Positions 15,489 to 22,280 of a stretch of 64,000 bases of DNA are shown here, one piece after another; within the stretch, counting starts at the first letter, position 1, and every line of letters starts with the position of its first letter. The stretch covers positions 2,752,001 through 2,816,000 of the forward strand of contig OY761158.1 in NCBI GenBank assembly GCA_963664405.1, written 5' to 3'. Position numbers and translations under genes: made by a program. The notes below the pieces were generated by a model, which saw only the letters and a list, made by a program, of their open reading frames with translations, was not told where the DNA came from and made no database searches. Source of the stretch: Thermoanaerobaculia bacterium (lineage in GTDB: Bacteria; Acidobacteriota; Thermoanaerobaculia; Multivoradales; Multivoraceae).

Positions 15489-15552
15489 CGGACGCAGCAG
15501 GTCTCTAGTAGAAGTCTAAGGAAACGCCTCCCGTCCCGAACATTTCTGGAGG

Positions 15553-15942
15553 CTAGTTCGTGATGTCGCTGGTGACACTGCCACCGCGCACCGGCATGTA
15601 GAGCTTGTACCAGTTCCTTTGCGCCTGACTGCCGGCGTAGTCGGCCAGGGCCTTCTCGCTCTCGAACTCCATGACGAAGGCTGCGTCTCTGGTCTGTGAC
15701 TTGATGCTTCTCAGCCAGACGCGAGAAATACCATCGTATTCGGCGGCTAGGGTTTCGACGCCTTCGAGCGCTTTGGCGATCGCGTCTTCGGAGGCGCCCT
15801 CGGCCCAATTGAGAGTGACGACGTGGATCACCGATTTCGGCTTCTCGACACCGGCGGCGCCGAGCACAACACCCGCGGCGAAAAATGCAGCGGCGGCGGG
15901 TACCAAGAAGAGAGATTGTCTCGAGCGTTTCCTAGCAATCAT
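15553..15942 (-). CDS. Dabb (stress-responsive A/B barrel) family protein
   Basis: VIHVVTLNW...AFVMEFESEKALADY; N-terminal signal. Confidence 0.7.
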   Translation of the reverse strand: MIARKRSRQSLFLVPAAAAFFAAGVVLGAAGVEKPKSVIHVVTLNWAEGASEDAIAKALEGVETLAAEYDGISRVWLRSIKSQTRDAAFVMEFESEKALADYAGSQAQRNWYKLYMPVRGGSVTSDITN

Positions 15943-16002
15943 GTTCGACCCCCTTTGTTTGCCAGCCGACGGCTGGAGTGCGTCCCATAGGTGGCTCTCC
16001 CC

Positions 16003-16248
16003 TCCGAGTATTGGTTGATCCGTCTCCCGGAGCGAATAGGAAGCAGCACCGAGTGCGCCGTCCTCGGCGCCAAAATGCAACTAGCCGTATGAAATGATAG
16101 CAATCATTTCTGGAGGCTAGGAGCGTGTCCGAGTATTCGGCCAGAGCCGTTTCCCGGAGCGAATAGGAAGCAACGCCTGAGTGCGCCGTCCTCGGCGCCT
16201 AAGGGCAGCTAGCCGGAGGAAATGATAGCGATCATTTCAGGAGGCTAG
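16003..16248. repeat. Two tandem ~125 bp REP-like structured repeats
   Basis: GTGCGCCGTCCTCGGCGCC plus a CTAGCC..GAAATGAT-N4-ATCATTTC..GGCTAG hairpin in each; related copies at 15541-15556 and 51740-51802. Confidence 0.85.
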
Positions 16249-17633
16249 TCCACTAATCGGGTCTCAGGATAGGCGGCAAACCAACCGAACCAGAAGGCGC
16301 GCTGCGCCGGTAGCCGGTGGCACACGCGACCGTCCTCAGCGAGGAGCCGGTCCTCGTCGAGCGTCCATGCATCTCCGGCGGCGTCAACCACTCTCCGATC
16401 CTGGTCCCACTCCGAGAAGCGCACACCGCCTGTGCTGTAGACGCGGTTTGCGCCCGAGGCGTCGGTGAGAACGACGATCTCCAGATCGCCGATCCGATCG
16501 TGGTGGACAGGCTCTTTCGCCAAGAGCTCGGCGGCGATCGCGAGTGGCTCAGCCTCATCGCCACCGAGTACGAGAGTAAGAACTTCGTCTTTGTTCTTGA
16601 GACGGCGATCGAGCTTGGGGACGTTGAACATCAGCCTGTCAGTCGAGAAGTACTCTCGGTAGGCCGCGCCCTCTGAGTAGTCTCGGTTGTGGCCGGTGTC
16701 TTTAGAAAGCACCAGCGTCTGAGGGTGACGGCGACGCCATTCAGCCCAGGTTGTGGTGACGATGGCGCGCCCTCTGAGCTGGATTCCCTTGCCGACCAGT
16801 GGGCCGATCACCGGCCGCCCCCAGAGAGTGCTCCACAGCGATTGAGTGGCCCGGTCGTACATGAGTTTGTTGGACCGATAGAGAAAGCCGCTGGTACCGA
16901 CCTCGTGCTCAACACCCTCGTAGGTCGTTTCGTAAAGGATGGCGGTGCCGCAGAGCGTGCAATAGACACCGGCGAGCGGGATGCCGCCGACTACGTCGGT
17001 GAACATTTCGTGCCATGCCAGAATGCGCTTGGGATAGGCGCGGATGTCGTCGTTGATCGCAATGCCGAAGACGACGTTGTCGTCGCCGAGATAGTCTGCC
17101 TCGGCGGCCGAAATCATCTTGGGCCTGCGCAGTGGTGGAATTCCGTCTTGAAGCACTCCGCCCCAGCGCACTTCGTCGAGGCGGATCGTAGCTGCGCGAT
17201 CGTTGGCGAAGTAGGCGGCAAAGCGTGGGTCGAGGTTGCGATAGAGCCGATGCATGAATTCGGCGTAGTCGGGATGGGGGCGATACGGCTGCGCCCACAG
17301 CCACTCGTACCAGGCGTCCATGTCGTTGCCGAAAGACCGCCGTGTTCCCTCCTCCAGGGCCGAGATCGTGAAACCTGCCACCTCCGGTTCTCTTGCGAAG
17401 TGAAAAACATCGATCAGCATCGGGGCGTATCCCGGTTGCCAGGTCTTGCGGATCTTCCTCATCACAGGAGCCCAATGGCCCGGCTCGTTGACGAGGAGTG
17501 AGAAGAACTCATCCGGTGTCGCAAGCTCAAGCTCGGCGGCGCCGGCGGTAAGCGCGGGGCAAGGGAAGAGCGAAGAGACAGCCGAGGCGGCGACGAGAAG
17601 GAGCGTAAACCGTGGACGGATAGGTGAGCTCAC
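16245..17633 (-). CDS. DUF3179 domain protein (CxxC form), secreted
   Basis: WGGVLQDGIPPL, AYPKRILAWHE, YCTLCGT, GTSGFLYRSNKLMYD, FWFGW. Confidence 0.85.
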   Translation of the reverse strand: MSSPIRPRFTLLLVAASAVSSLFPCPALTAGAAELELATPDEFFSLLVNEPGHWAPVMRKIRKTWQPGYAPMLIDVFHFAREPEVAGFTISALEEGTRRSFGNDMDAWYEWLWAQPYRPHPDYAEFMHRLYRNLDPRFAAYFANDRAATIRLDEVRWGGVLQDGIPPLRRPKMISAAEADYLGDDNVVFGIAINDDIRAYPKRILAWHEMFTDVVGGIPLAGVYCTLCGTAILYETTYEGVEHEVGTSGFLYRSNKLMYDRATQSLWSTLWGRPVIGPLVGKGIQLRGRAIVTTTWAEWRRRHPQTLVLSKDTGHNRDYSEGAAYREYFSTDRLMFNVPKLDRRLKNKDEVLTLVLGGDEAEPLAIAAELLAKEPVHHDRIGDLEIVVLTDASGANRVYSTGGVRFSEWDQDRRVVDAAGDAWTLDEDRLLAEDGRVCHRLPAQRAFWFGWFAAYPETRLVD

Positions 17634-17655
17634 GGAGTCGGATCGGCGCCCGCAA

Positions 17656-19008
17656 CTAGCCGGAACGCGCCGAAAGTACGGGTGGAAGGTGGCAGGCGGC
17701 CTCGCTCCAGCTCGAGCCGGCGTCGGCGGAGGCGAAGAGCTGCCCCGAAGTCGCGCCGAAGTAAAGGCCGAGGGGCTTGCCCCCATCGTGACAGAAGGCC
17801 TGGCGAAGGATGGTCAAGAAAGCGGGGGGAGAAGGCAAGCCGCTCGTGTGCGGCTGCCAGGTGTTGCCTCGGTCGCGGGTCTCGTAGACGCGCATCTTCG
17901 CCTCGGCGGTGATCCGATCTTCATCCGAGTTGAGTGGGATCACCCACGCGCGATCGGGGTCGCGCGGGTCGGCTACGAGCGGAAAGCCGAAGTCGGCCGG
18001 CAGCCCGCCTTCGCTGCCGATGTCGATCCAGGTCTCGCCGGCATCGTCGGAGCGATAGACGCCGCCGTGAAATTGCATATAGAAGGTGCTGGGCTGAGCC
18101 GGAGATCGATGGAGGTTGTGCACACACTGATCGGGGGCGTCGTCTCGAGCCCCTTCGGGGAGGTAGCGCGAGATCAAGCCCTTGCCGGCTCGATGCCAGC
18201 TTCTCCCGCCGTCCTCCGTATGCCAGACGCCGGCGGCGGAGATGCCCACCGACAGCCGAGAGGCGTCGCCGGGCCAGGTGCAGATCGAGTGCAGGGCGAG
18301 ACCACCCATCCCGCCTTCCCAGGATGGACGACTTGGGACGTTCCAGAGTGCCTCGTTGAGGGCCCAACTGTGACCGCCGTCGCGGCTCTCGAAGAGCGCG
18401 GCCGGCGCGACTCCTGCCAGCACCTGCCCTTCGGTCTCTCCAGGGACTACGGACCATATTCGCTCGAGCGCCTGTCCCGAATCCTCTGGAAATGCCGGGC
18501 CGTCACACTCCTGCCATTCGCCGTCAGGTGATGCGGCCCAGAACAGGTGGGGGCCGAACTGGCCGTGCACGACGCTGGCGAAGATGCGACCCGTGCGCAG
18601 ATCCCGCATCGCATAGGGCACTTCCTGGCCGCCGAAGGCGCGGTGGGTGATCTCGAGCTCGCCGCCGCGGGAGCCACGAAGAACGAAGAGACCCTTCTTG
18701 GTACCGACGAGAAGCTCGATGTCGGCACCCGCTGCGTGGTCGGGCTCGGATCCTCCTGAGATCGCGGGGATCACCCAGACCTCGTCCCCGTCTTCCACGG
18801 CGGTGTCTAGCTCCGCGCGATCCTGGTTGACGAACACATTGACGTGCCGGCGGATGCGCTCTTGTTCGTCGAGGATCCAGCCTTTCAATCGGGGGTGACG
18901 ACTCAACAGGTCTTGGAGTACCGCCGCGACCGAGGCTCCGTCGACCTCGACTCGGTCGTCTCCGTCGACGAGCTCGCGCAACGCCGCGGTCAAAACGACT
19001 TTCGCCAT
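17656..19008 (-). CDS. MoaD/ThiS ubiquitin-like domain fused to a BNR-repeat (sialidase-like) beta-propeller
   Basis: N-terminal ...GDEVWVIPAISGG, then LLVGTKKGLF and several SxDGGxSW Asp-boxes; GAGGAGG RBS before ATG at 19008. Confidence 0.85.
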   Translation of the reverse strand: MAKVVLTAALRELVDGDDRVEVDGASVAAVLQDLLSRHPRLKGWILDEQERIRRHVNVFVNQDRAELDTAVEDGDEVWVIPAISGGSEPDHAAGADIELLVGTKKGLFVLRGSRGGELEITHRAFGGQEVPYAMRDLRTGRIFASVVHGQFGPHLFWAASPDGEWQECDGPAFPEDSGQALERIWSVVPGETEGQVLAGVAPAALFESRDGGHSWALNEALWNVPSRPSWEGGMGGLALHSICTWPGDASRLSVGISAAGVWHTEDGGRSWHRAGKGLISRYLPEGARDDAPDQCVHNLHRSPAQPSTFYMQFHGGVYRSDDAGETWIDIGSEGGLPADFGFPLVADPRDPDRAWVIPLNSDEDRITAEAKMRVYETRDRGNTWQPHTSGLPSPPAFLTILRQAFCHDGGKPLGLYFGATSGQLFASADAGSSWSEAACHLPPVLSARSG

Positions 19009-19033
19009 GCAGCCAACCTCCCTCAGGAAGAAA

Positions 19034-19582
19034 TCATGGTAGCAGGACGGCTTCGAGCTGGATTCCGAGACCATCGGCGATGCGGTTGGCGTAGGCGTAA
19101 TAGGCGACGACCTCGGCGATGTGGAGGACGTCTTGGTCGCTGAAGCCGTCGTGGAGCAAGGCCTCCACATCCTTGCGCTCCATCGCGCCGGGAGTACGGG
19201 TGAGCTTTTCGGCGTAGACGAGCACTTCGCGTTTCTTGGAGGAAAGGCGCGCACTGCGAAAGTCCGCCTCGATCTGCTGCAGCAGAAGGTCATCCCGGAG
19301 CAACCGGCGCAGACCGCGCCGATGGTGCGCGATTCAATAGTGGCAGGCGTTGGCGCGGCTGACTACCAGCGCGATCATCTCGCGGTCTACCTTGCGCAGC
19401 GAGCGAGTGCCGGTCATCACCGCCCGATAGAGCTCGTAGTGGGCGCTCAGGCCCGCGGGGTGCAGCGAGTGCACGCTCATAATCTGATCGAGCGCTCCCG
19501 TCGAGGGATCGGCGACGGCGTGGTAGAGCTCGAGAAGAGTGCCTTCGGCGTTGCTCGGGTCGATGGTCCGAATCCAGGGCAC
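19034..19582 (-). CDS. AhpD/CMD-like peroxidase-related selenoprotein (CxxU, TGA at 19334-19336)
   Basis: EMIALVVSRANAC-H-Y-TGA-IAHH continues in frame into YAEKLTRTP...YAYANRIADGLG; SECIS-like hairpin at 19305-19321. Confidence 0.85.
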
Positions 19583-19585
19583 GAT

Positions 19586-20515
19586 CTATTCGGCCCTGAC
19601 GTTGCCACGGGCTCGATCGCGCTCACGCTGCGCCCGCCGCCGCTCTCCCTTCGCTCGTAGCGCCTCGCGGTTGGAGTCGTCGACGCGCGAGTAGGAGTCG
19701 CGCCAGTCCGGATCTCCTGGCCAGACGAAGAGCGACTGCACGGTGGTGCGAGGTTGCCGCGCGGACTCGAGCAGCTCCAGCCCGAGCTCGACGATGGTGC
19801 GCTGCATCTCGGGCTGCCAGGGCAGGCCGGCGGAGTTACCCAACGGGAAGTCATTGAAGACGAACCGGGGCACGCCGCAGTGCTCGACGATGTCGCGGGC
19901 AGAGCCCAGGATCACGGTTGGCAGGCCGTTGGCCTCGAGGTGCCGAGCCGTCAAACTGACGGTCTGATGACAGACCGGTCAGAGTGGGACCAGGATTACC
20001 ACATCGGCACCGTCTTCGCGGCAGCGGTGCAAGATCTCGGGCGCGTCGTTCTCGACAGTCCGGCGGTGGCTGTACTCCGTTGGGACGCCGTGACAGCGAT
20101 CGGCGAGGCGGCCGATGCGGCCTTCCTCGGCGAGCTCTGTCAAGCGGTGCACCGGCAGAAAGGAGTCCAGGTCGTCGGTGTTTGTCACCTCCTTGTGCCA
20201 GCTCAGGTCGTCGGTGTAGAGCGAAGGGGGCTCGCCGGAAGAAAAGGAGTGAACTCGGCGTAGGGGTCTGGGATCACCCACCTTCCAACCCGGTGGAGAC
20301 GGCTCGTTGGCGGTCGTGATCAGAGACACCACCGACTCTGAAAGAGGTTTGTTGAGAGGGGTGAGGGGTACGTTCTGGTGATAGGCCCAGCGATAGGGAC
20401 GCTCGAAGCCCTGAGCTTCGTAATGTTCTCGGGTTCTGTCGATGTAGCGGACGAAAGTTGTGCGCGTCGTCGCCGGGGTCAGCTCGCGTGGCTTTTCCGA
20501 GAGTGCTTGGCTCAT
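19586..20515 (-). CDS. GrdB/PrdB-like (reductase selenoprotein B family) selenoprotein (UxxC, TGA at 19979-19981)
   Basis: DGADVVILVPL-TGA-PVCHQTVSLTARHLEANGLPTV...VPR...FPLG is in frame; hairpin CCGTCA-GTT-TGACGG 16 nt downstream. Confidence 0.85.
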
Positions 20516-20642
20516 GCTGCTTTCCTGCGTTCGGTCGCTCCGGCCATGTTAAACCGGCTCGGCCACTGTTGCCCAGCGGACGCGACCCTGGTTGGCGAGA
20601 GCCTGTGCTAGCGTCGCACTCTTGCCCTCAAGGAGAAGTGTG

Positions 20643-22280
20643 ATGTGGAAGACGATTCGCCTCTTGGCGCTGCTCTGTGTTTGCCTGGCTTGTAGCCCTT
20701 CAGAGGAGGCCGCTTTGGACCCTCAACCTGCCTCCCTTGGTCCGGTCCTCGAGACCGCCAATGGACAATTGGAGGGAGACTGGGTCGACGAGACGCAGGA
20801 CGTTTTGGTCTTCCTCGGCGTGCCCTTCGCGAAGCCCCCGGTCGGCGACCTTCGCTTTCGGCCCCCGCAGCCGCCGCAATCCTGGGAAGGCACTCGCTCG
20901 GCGAATCGCTTCAGTCTGCCGTGCTGGCAGCGAGTCTCACCCGAGACCTCGATCTATAGCCGTGGAGAGTTCGAGCGCAGCGAAGACTGTCTCTACCTGA
21001 ATCTGTGGACGCCTGCACGGAGCCGAGAGGAACGACTGCCGGTGATGGTGTGGTTCCACGGCGGCGGCCACCGGAGCGGTCACGCCAACTCACCGACGTT
21101 CGACGGCACCGCGCTGGCGCGAAAGGGCGTCGTGCTGGTTGCGGTCAATTATCGTCTGGGCGCCTTGGGCTTCATGGCCCATCCGGCCCTCACCGCGGAA
21201 TCGGCAAACCGCTCCTCGGGCAACTACGGCATCCTCGACAAGATCGCATCGCTCGAGTGGGTAAGGAACAATGCCAGCGCCTTCGGCGGCGACCTCGACA
21301 ACGTCACCATCTTCGGTCAGTCCGCCAGCTCGGCGAGTGTGTGTACGCTGATGGCGTCGCCGCTCGCACACGGGCTTTTCCACCGGGCGATCGGCCATTC
21401 AGGGAGCTGTATAGGGCCTCGGATGGAGCTTGCCGGCGAGGGCGGAGCCCACAGTCTCGGGCTCAACTTGGCGGCTGCGCTCGGAGTCGAGGGAGAGGGC
21501 GCCGAGGCGACTGCCGCGTTGCGGGAGCTCGAGCCTGAAGCGATTCTCGACGCTTCGCAGGGTGGCACTACTCGCAGCCCCGGCATCCAGATCGACGGCT
21601 GGGTGGTGCCCCGGCAGATGCGAGAGATCTTCGCTGCCGGCGAGCACAACCGAGTGCCAATGATCGCTGGCTGGATGGCGGATGAAGGCAAGGGGCTCTA
21701 TTCGACTCTGCAGGGACGGCCCCGGCCGCAGCTCGAAACCTGGATCGAGACTCGCTACGGTGCTCATGGCAACGCTCTCTTGGCCGAATACGGCCCCGAG
21801 ATCGAGGCGTCTACAAGAGCTGCAGAACAGGCGATCCTAGGCGATCAGATCTTCGGTTGGGGAACCCGCGCCTGGGTCCGCGAGGTCGAAGGGGCGGGCG
21901 ATCCCGCTTTCCTCTACTTCTTCAGCCAAGCGCCTCCGGTCTTCCTGCTCTACCTTCCCGATCGTCCGGCGCTCGAACTTGCCGAGGGCCCGCGCAGCTA
22001 CGGCGCCTATCACTCCGGCGACCTGCCCTACGCTTTCGCCAATCAGCACCTGGTCGGCTACGGCTGGAACGAGACGGATCGCGAGATCTCTCGCGTCATG
22101 TCGCAGTACTGGGTGAATTTCGCCCGCAGCGGCGACCCCAACGGTGAAGGGCTTCCGGCTTGGCCTCGCTACGACACAGAAGGCGACCAGGCGATCGAGC
22201 TCGGTGCCGAGATTGGTGCCGTCTCCGGTGCGATCAAGGAGAAGCTCGATATCTTCGACGCCATAGCCGGCTCAGGGTAG
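20643..22280 (+). CDS. Carboxylesterase type B, probable lipoprotein
   Basis: FLGVPFAKPP, SEDCLYLN, HGGG, GQSAS nucleophile elbow, AYHSGDL. Confidence 0.92.
   Translation: MWKTIRLLALLCVCLACSPSEEAALDPQPASLGPVLETANGQLEGDWVDETQDVLVFLGVPFAKPPVGDLRFRPPQPPQSWEGTRSANRFSLPCWQRVSPETSIYSRGEFERSEDCLYLNLWTPARSREERLPVMVWFHGGGHRSGHANSPTFDGTALARKGVVLVAVNYRLGALGFMAHPALTAESANRSSGNYGILDKIASLEWVRNNASAFGGDLDNVTIFGQSASSASVCTLMASPLAHGLFHRAIGHSGSCIGPRMELAGEGGAHSLGLNLAAALGVEGEGAEATAALRELEPEAILDASQGGTTRSPGIQIDGWVVPRQMREIFAAGEHNRVPMIAGWMADEGKGLYSTLQGRPRPQLETWIETRYGAHGNALLAEYGPEIEASTRAAEQAILGDQIFGWGTRAWVREVEGAGDPAFLYFFSQAPPVFLLYLPDRPALELAEGPRSYGAYHSGDLPYAFANQHLVGYGWNETDREISRVMSQYWVNFARSGDPNGEGLPAWPRYDTEGDQAIELGAEIGAVSGAIKEKLDIFDAIAGSG

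Follow-up and report, generated by a model that had tools for sequence, protein, structure and literature searches.

Two new members of long-known selenoprotein families in a lineage-specific four-gene cluster of a Thermoanaerobaculia bacterium

The stretch of DNA analysed here, referred to as the window, comprises 64,000 nt of contig OY761158.1 (positions 2,752,001-2,816,000, assembly GCA_963664405.1) from a Thermoanaerobaculia bacterium, whose genome is labelled G000 in the following, amounts to 6.78 Mb and is 97% complete. All coordinates are based on the window unless another genome position or locus is named. Between positions 16245 and 20515, four genes lie in the same orientation on the minus strand and are separated by gaps of 3, 25 and 22 bp, the last of which holds if the GTG at 17633 is the start of the fourth gene. 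The first gene, g1 (19586..20515), encodes a stand-alone selenoprotein of the PrdB/GrdB superfamily with 309 amino acids and the motif U179-P-V-C182. It is followed by g2 (19034..19582), whose GTG start at 19582 is located three bases past the g1 stop and which encodes an AhpD-like (TIGR01926 peroxidase-related) selenoprotein of 182 amino acids with the motif C80-H-Y-U83. The third gene, g3 (17656..19008), has the Shine-Dalgarno sequence GAGGGAGG and encodes a 450-residue fusion of a ThiS/MoaD-type beta-grasp domain with a BNR (Asp-box) beta-propeller, and g4 (16245..17633) encodes the Cys form of a DUF3179 protein with a GTG start, 462 amino acids and a signal-peptide-like N-terminus. A preliminary description of this DNA had interpreted the four genes as a compact selenium/sulfur redox relay. 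Its account of the gene order and the gaps agrees with the coordinates, one in-frame TGA is indeed found inside the UxxC motif of g1 and the CxxU motif of g2, and the profile scores given below bear out its assignment of the genes to GrdB/PrdB-like, AhpD-like and DUF3179 families. As will be argued, the cluster nevertheless holds new members of two long-known selenoprotein families in a lineage-specific arrangement, and the evidence gives no support to a dedicated pathway of four genes.

Translation table 11 splits g1 and g2 into two open reading frames (ORFs) each. In g1, the responsible codon is the sole in-frame TGA at 19979..19981 (minus strand), which corresponds to U179 in VPL-U-P-V-C; in g2 it is the TGA at 19334..19336 (minus strand), corresponding to U83 in C-H-Y-U, and the second TGA of g2 is its stop codon. 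Because g2 itself terminates at TGA, a genome-wide reassignment of this codon is absent. The genome possesses the machinery for the incorporation of selenocysteine (Sec), namely selA (423 bits), selB (340 bits) and selD (362 bits), all over their curated cut-offs, and a tRNA-Sec (72 bits) with the anticodon TCA, which ARAGORN lists as tRNA-SeC (tca). The selD gene (G000:C1:388007-388930) contains an in-frame TGA itself (…KTCG-U-AAKL…), the selenophosphate synthetase being a selenoprotein in this organism.

Both TGA codons recur in homologs. One in-frame TGA is present in 49 of the 54 g1-family matches from 41 related genomes, two are present in one match and none in four. At the Sec column of g1, family-level orthologs carry TGA in eight of ten cases and TGC or TGT in the other two. 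A phylum-wide set, consisting of the best 80 of 589 stretches that encode a relative in a scan of species-representative genomes, has a stop codon at this column in 75 loci and Cys in two, the motif being unmatched in three. With respect to g2, all 11 matches of at least 46% identity contain one in-frame TGA, each of the 15 homologous loci examined has a TGA immediately behind C-x-Y, and the three stop-free homologs all have Cys at the Sec column. The protein sequence 3' of each TGA is strongly conserved in both genes.

A hairpin that resembles a selenocysteine insertion sequence (SECIS) follows each of the two codons. The g1 hairpin (19951..19967, minus strand) begins 11 nt past the UGA and consists of a 6-bp stem, UCAGAC/GUUUGA, with the loop CGUCA. 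In eight Sec-containing orthologs 48 of 48 cells of this stem are paired, compared to 0-35% in slid controls, and the closing pair covaries, being C-G in four orthologs and U-A in the other four. All eight Sec forms use AGU for the Ser in the 3' arm, where the two Cys forms have AGC or a codon for Thr. The g2 hairpin (19305..19321, minus strand), located 12 nt past the UGA, has the stem CGGCGC/GCGCCG and the loop GGUCU, which we take to resemble the E. coli fdhF element. Across 12 sequences 76% of its cells are paired, one pair occurs as GC, GU, AU, CG and UA, and the covariation score was reached by none of 500 shuffles; more distant g2 homologs keep the hairpin in a shifted register. An Rfam scan of positions 15500-21500 (E<=1) gave no SECIS family; its single match, flg-Rhizobiales, was sub-threshold and lay outside the genes. 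With these elements, SelB carrying Sec-tRNA(Sec) would bind the hairpin 11-12 nt past each UGA, resulting in the insertion of Sec, and at the second g2 TGA, which has no such hairpin, translation would terminate.

The two ORFs that table 11 yields for each gene might alternatively be taken as traces of inactivating mutations or assembly errors, so that g1 and g2 would be pseudogenes or a set of four gene fragments. This is scarcely credible, since different genomes and phyla have the TGA at one and the same column, the protein downstream of it is conserved, the hairpins covary, the Sec machinery is present, and contigs from two studies, covering 16281-20600 and 16219-20600, have zero differences from the window. 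The identity of these contigs provides weak independent support, because one of them may come from the source sample. Based on the machinery, the hairpins and the Sec/Cys pairs, all read from sequence, we conclude that both in-frame TGAs are genuine Sec codons, as the preliminary description had assumed. Annotation pipelines that do not model Sec would therefore split or shorten g1 and g2.

The best NCBIfam matches of g1 are the PrdB and GrdB models. The match to PrdB (TIGR04483; E 9.5e-25) reaches 87.4 bits over model positions 20-222 of 238, where the cut-off is 300, and the match to the GrdB-type model (TIGR01918) is weaker, with 27.9 bits against a cut-off of 65.45. A Pfam search (E<=0.01) gave zero matches, including none to GRDB (PF07355). 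As these scores stay below the curated cut-offs, g1 is to be regarded as a distant relative within the superfamily and not as an equivalog. Like PrdB, the 26-kDa selenoprotein of D-proline reductase, g1 has a UxxC motif, a similar size and PrdB as its best model match, and these similarities could be understood as a sign that g1 belongs, as one of the subunits, to a canonical D-proline reductase or glycine/betaine/sarcosine reductase. We think that this is very improbable, because the scores lie far under the equivalog cut-offs (87 vs 300 and 28 vs 65 bits), the Pfam GRDB family is not matched, no conserved partner gene is found in 80 loci, and PrdA and GrdA had no match in the 97%-complete genome, although 14 control genomes gave no match either. 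As neither PrdA nor GrdA was found, we infer that g1 acts as a selenol/thiol oxidoreductase but is neither a D-proline nor a glycine reductase; the U179/C182 pair would serve this role.

In 64 g1-family sequences, the residues C179(U), P180, C182 and H183 are invariant. An AlphaFold2 model calculated from these 64 sequences (mean predicted local distance difference test, pLDDT, of 91.2) suggests a Rossmann-like alpha/beta fold for g1, in which U179 is placed between a strand (172-176) and a helix (180-195). Such a strand-to-helix turn would be a usual place for a redox centre of the CxxC type. The sequence of g1 matched nothing in the PDB at E<=1, and a Foldseek search of the model against the PDB gave zero matches at E<=1e-3. 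In the wide VIA-align search the best Z was 9.1, obtained with LacI/periplasmic-binding and short-chain dehydrogenase/reductase (SDR)-type alpha/beta folds, which reflects the common Rossmann-like arrangement only. By description only, g1 can also be likened to the marine metagenomic "PrdB" class of Zhang and Gladyshev (2005, 2008), with which it shares the UxxC motif, the predominance of Sec forms and the abundance. The genome contains five PrdB-like paralogs including the one in the window, the others being located at C1:5575053, 6328842, 6356524 and 5775751, and each of them has a TGA in P-[VSL]-U-P-x-C; the copy at 6328842 carries the hairpin CAGACCGUGAGUCUG, which is identical to that of g1 orthologs.

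The classification of g2 is more direct, with 128.3 bits for TIGR01926 (cut-off 81.8), 38.8 bits for the AhpD core model TIGR00778 (cut-off 27.8) and 43.4 bits for the Pfam family CMD. Its CxxU motif is located in the AhpD core at the position of the CxxC-type motif, where Cys homologs have C-x-Y-C, and g2 can thus be seen as an ordinary member of the AhpD-like selenoproteins of COG2128/TIGR01926 ("AhpD-like 1"). As an AhpD-like C-x-x-U protein it would act as a hydroperoxide or disulfide reductase.

The g4 protein matches DUF3179 (PF11376) over the full length of the profile, positions 1-292 of 292, with 241 bits (cut-off 27). In this family, Sec members have UxxC/T, whereas g4 is a Cys form with a CxxC motif, C-T-L-C in GVYCTLCG (16950..16961, minus strand), the first Cys of which stands at the Sec column. 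A DUF3179 paralog elsewhere in the genome, at about 1.796 Mb (G000:C1:1795549-1796373), contains a TGA (…AAVW-U-PLA…) at exactly this column. The N-terminus of g4, as read from the sequence, is hydrophobic and signal-peptide-like, and g4 is probably exported while g1-g3 are probably not, which argues against a direct relay chemistry between g4 and the cytoplasmic g1-g3.

The two-domain architecture of g3 had been recognised in the preliminary description as a MoaD-like domain ending in GG and fused to a BNR propeller, followed by a gene with the motif YCTLC, and PF02597, PF15902 together with PDB 3b7f, and PF11376 confirm this. The ThiS domain comprises residues 1-86 (18751..19008, minus strand); it matches PF02597 with 45.3 bits (cut-off 22.5) over residues 4-86 and PDB 4n6e_B with an E of 5.7e-10, and ends in ...AISGG, with G85-G86 at 18756-18751, after which a variable linker follows. 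The propeller of BNR/Sortilin type extends over residues ~96-450 (17656..18723, minus strand) and matches PF15902 with 34.4 bits and PDB 3b7f with an E of 8.9e-52 (residues 95-449). The latter is a structural-genomics entry named "Glycosyl hydrolase, BNR repeat", which in contrast to g3 has no ThiS domain. In 16 g3 homologs I83, G85 and G86 are invariant and S84 is nearly so, again with a variable linker behind them, and g3 thereby shares with the sulfur-carrier and ubiquitin-like (Ubl) proteins of the ThiS/MoaD type both the beta-grasp match and the invariant Gly-Gly. Out of 8000 scored candidates, 6925 are g3 homologs at E<=1e-3. Among the 120 listed, 119 align over 92% or more of the query; most are full-length at ~60% identity, and those with a name are called "MoaD/ThiS family protein".

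The two domains are fused in the window and in five other cases, and are encoded by adjacent separate genes in five relatives. In three of the latter the propeller precedes a ThiS gene that ends ...VSGG-stop (L058 5956-7321, L059 6173-7629 and L060 6208-7628), and in two a ThiS gene ending GG-TGA precedes the propeller (L055 6236-7642 and L062 3419-4864), so that the Gly-Gly is internal in the fusion and terminal in the split homologs. This fused-or-adjacent pattern indicates that ThiS and propeller are partners independently of the selenoprotein genes. A predicted complex of the ThiS part (1-87) with the propeller (96-450) obtained a score of 0.02 against a mark of 0.32, which counts neither way. 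MoaD-MoaE fusions that are cleaved by a JAMM protease have been reported from Deinococcus (PMC8832034); the partner domain in g3 is a 3b7f-like BNR propeller and not MoaE, and its GG is internal. Among the papers listed in a literature search by term, none combines MoaD with the BNR repeat. Far from the window, the only ThiF-type E1 of the genome belongs to a group of adjacent genes (G000:C1:3686780-3688309) that also includes a JAMM (Prok-JAB) gene and a small ThiS-like gene (3687276-3687527). Judged from these gene families, this JAMM-ThiS-ThiF cluster could be a processing and activating system for ThiS-type proteins, possibly including g3, which it would serve in trans.

The idea of a relay depends on the four genes belonging together, and their linkage in other genomes does not bear this out. 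In 40 relatives the orthologs of g1-g4 are either on separate contigs or over 100 kb from each other. When the fetched neighbourhoods were searched by tblastn, another member of the cluster was present near none of nine g1 loci, none of ten g2 loci, none of seven g4 loci and one of ten g3 loci, and in this single case it was an AhpD-like paralog (37% identity) at a distance of 2 kb, divergently oriented and with a beta-lactamase-family gene in between. No homolog of g2, g3 or g4 was detected in the 80 phylum-wide g1 loci, of which 72 extend at least 2 kb and 63 at least 5 kb downstream, and the commonest neighbour that these loci have in common occurs in 15 of 80 with variable offset and strand. 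The order of the cluster is kept only in the near-identical contigs and in one of ~93% identity. A clustering of the neighbours around the orthologs of each gene gave none common to at least three loci, with two exceptions: in three of nine relatives (L036 4651-7104, L037 and L041) the g1 ortholog is followed by a permease of the MacB/FtsX type with ~800 amino acids and no AhpD-like gene, and an unannotated block beside g4 is common to three of seven loci. No conserved linkage is thus found in other genomes, an outcome that the preliminary description itself had named as refuting its reading, and the idea of a conserved four-gene selenium/sulfur relay, or of a pathway, finds no support. It is probable, in our view, that the four genes of the region evolve independently, belong to families of wide distribution and became packed together in this lineage, two of them being true selenoprotein genes.

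Several observations weigh against this view of four independent genes. A contig from a third study (X8 record 29), which runs from the N-terminal part of g3 through g1 at ~93% identity, keeps the order g1-g2-g3. The nine family-level g1 loci cover 1.7-7.2 kb downstream and upstream only 33-2468 bp. The short gaps of the cluster and the absence of an intergenic terminator-like site suggest one transcript and products that are at least co-regulated: five terminator-like sites were found where 3.1 are expected from shuffles, the sole internal one, at 17785-17769, lies within g3, and a scan for sigma-70-like promoter sites gave 0. A look-up of RNA runs that contain this DNA listed none. In addition, a second adjacency of a PrdB-like gene (5775751-5776509, plus strand) and an AhpD-like gene (5776759-5777151, minus strand), convergently oriented, exists in the same genome, and if the AhpD-like genes are placed at random, a P of ~3e-5 results for two pairs of this kind within 1.5 kb. 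One more PrdB-like/AhpD-like pair, 4.4 kb apart, occurs in the related genome G028, and in the genome G009 an AhpD-like Sec gene is located ~1.5 kb from a Sec-DUF3179 gene. The interval of the latter contains, according to the translations, SRPBCC-like and TerC-like genes on mixed strands. Judging from the arrangement of the genes, g1-g4 are probably co-transcribed in this lineage.

These same observations can be given a functional meaning. Restricted to this lineage, g1 and g2 might be dedicated to each other as a selenol redox couple: the AhpD-like protein would re-reduce the Se-S bond of the PrdB-like protein, and g3 and g4 would be co-transcribed clients or accessory steps. Mycobacterial AhpD reduces AhpC, which offers a precedent for such a role. 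The 3 bp between the g1 stop and the g2 start suggest a translational coupling, and the second adjacency, whose paralogs (L070 6252-7652; PV-U-PDC and C-H-Y-U) have 30-35% identity to g1 and g2, is an independent case in the same genome. Operon-like clusters of AhpD-like genes with peroxiredoxin (Prx)-like selenoprotein genes are described from metagenomes in a review (PMC13188914). On the other hand, a g2-type neighbour is missing from all nine family-level and all 80 phylum-wide g1 loci, the only clear ortholog of the PrdB-like paralog at the second locus (G014, 45% identity) lacks an AhpD-like neighbour, g4 looks exported, and g3 has its own conserved partnership that is unrelated to selenoproteins. 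We hold such a couple to be rather unlikely, but because of the short gaps, the second adjacency, the pairs in G028 and G009 and the clustering noted in the review, it is kept as a rival to the reading of four independently evolving genes.

The surroundings of the cluster in the window consist of genes for a carboxylesterase, a PQQ (pyrroloquinoline quinone) dehydrogenase, a Dabb protein and a PRPP (phosphoribosyl pyrophosphate)-synthetase-like protein, which are unrelated to it, and the GC content of the cluster is ordinary. Directly upstream of g1, an ORF of 11 codons (MAGATERRKAA; 20513-20547, minus strand) has a TGA stop that overlaps the g1 ATG (ATGA), which may be chance.

That the three families include Sec-containing members, as stated in the preliminary description, is in accordance with the literature, but the novelty of the find had been overstated. 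In the Sargasso Sea data the PrdB (UxxC) and AhpD-like (CxxU) families were represented by 42 and 27 sequences and ranked as the third selenoprotein family and the leading new one (PMC1088965), and in the Global Ocean Sampling (GOS) data by 235 and 299 sequences (PMC2398784), so that both were described in 2005 and 2008 as belonging to the most abundant marine selenoprotein families. Proline reductase and AhpD-like proteins (COG2128) are listed among 25 bacterial selenoprotein families (PMC1794560), and two reviews tabulate AhpD-like TIGR01926 with CxxU and DUF3179 with UxxC/T as selenoproteins (PMC9312934, PMC13188914). Sec-containing DUF3179, PrdB-like and AhpD-like proteins are thus already known, and the cluster adds new members of known families in a lineage-specific grouping.

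With regard to the organism, the genome carries at least ten genes with an in-frame TGA, which are five PrdB-like genes, at least three AhpD-like genes, one DUF3179 gene and selD. Stand-alone PrdB-like proteins are very widespread, and 589 of their loci were confirmed in species-representative genomes. Nearly all members are Sec forms, neither a conserved neighbour nor a solved structure was found for the family, and the locus in the window is no better handle on its function than any other member. The partnership of ThiS and BNR propeller is a cleaner lead for comparative genomics than the four-gene model. Since a PrdB-like/AhpD-like couple gains support from its two independent adjacencies in this genome, one may also imagine that this lineage co-expresses such a redox couple with the ThiS(GG)-propeller protein, which would possibly be released by a JAMM protease at the GG and activated by the ThiF-type E1; we consider this quite unlikely. 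If it were true, selenium redox chemistry and a thiocarboxylate carrier would be connected through the cluster, and the ThiS(GG)-propeller would represent a conserved and so far undescribed system that combines a Ubl or sulfur carrier with a propeller.

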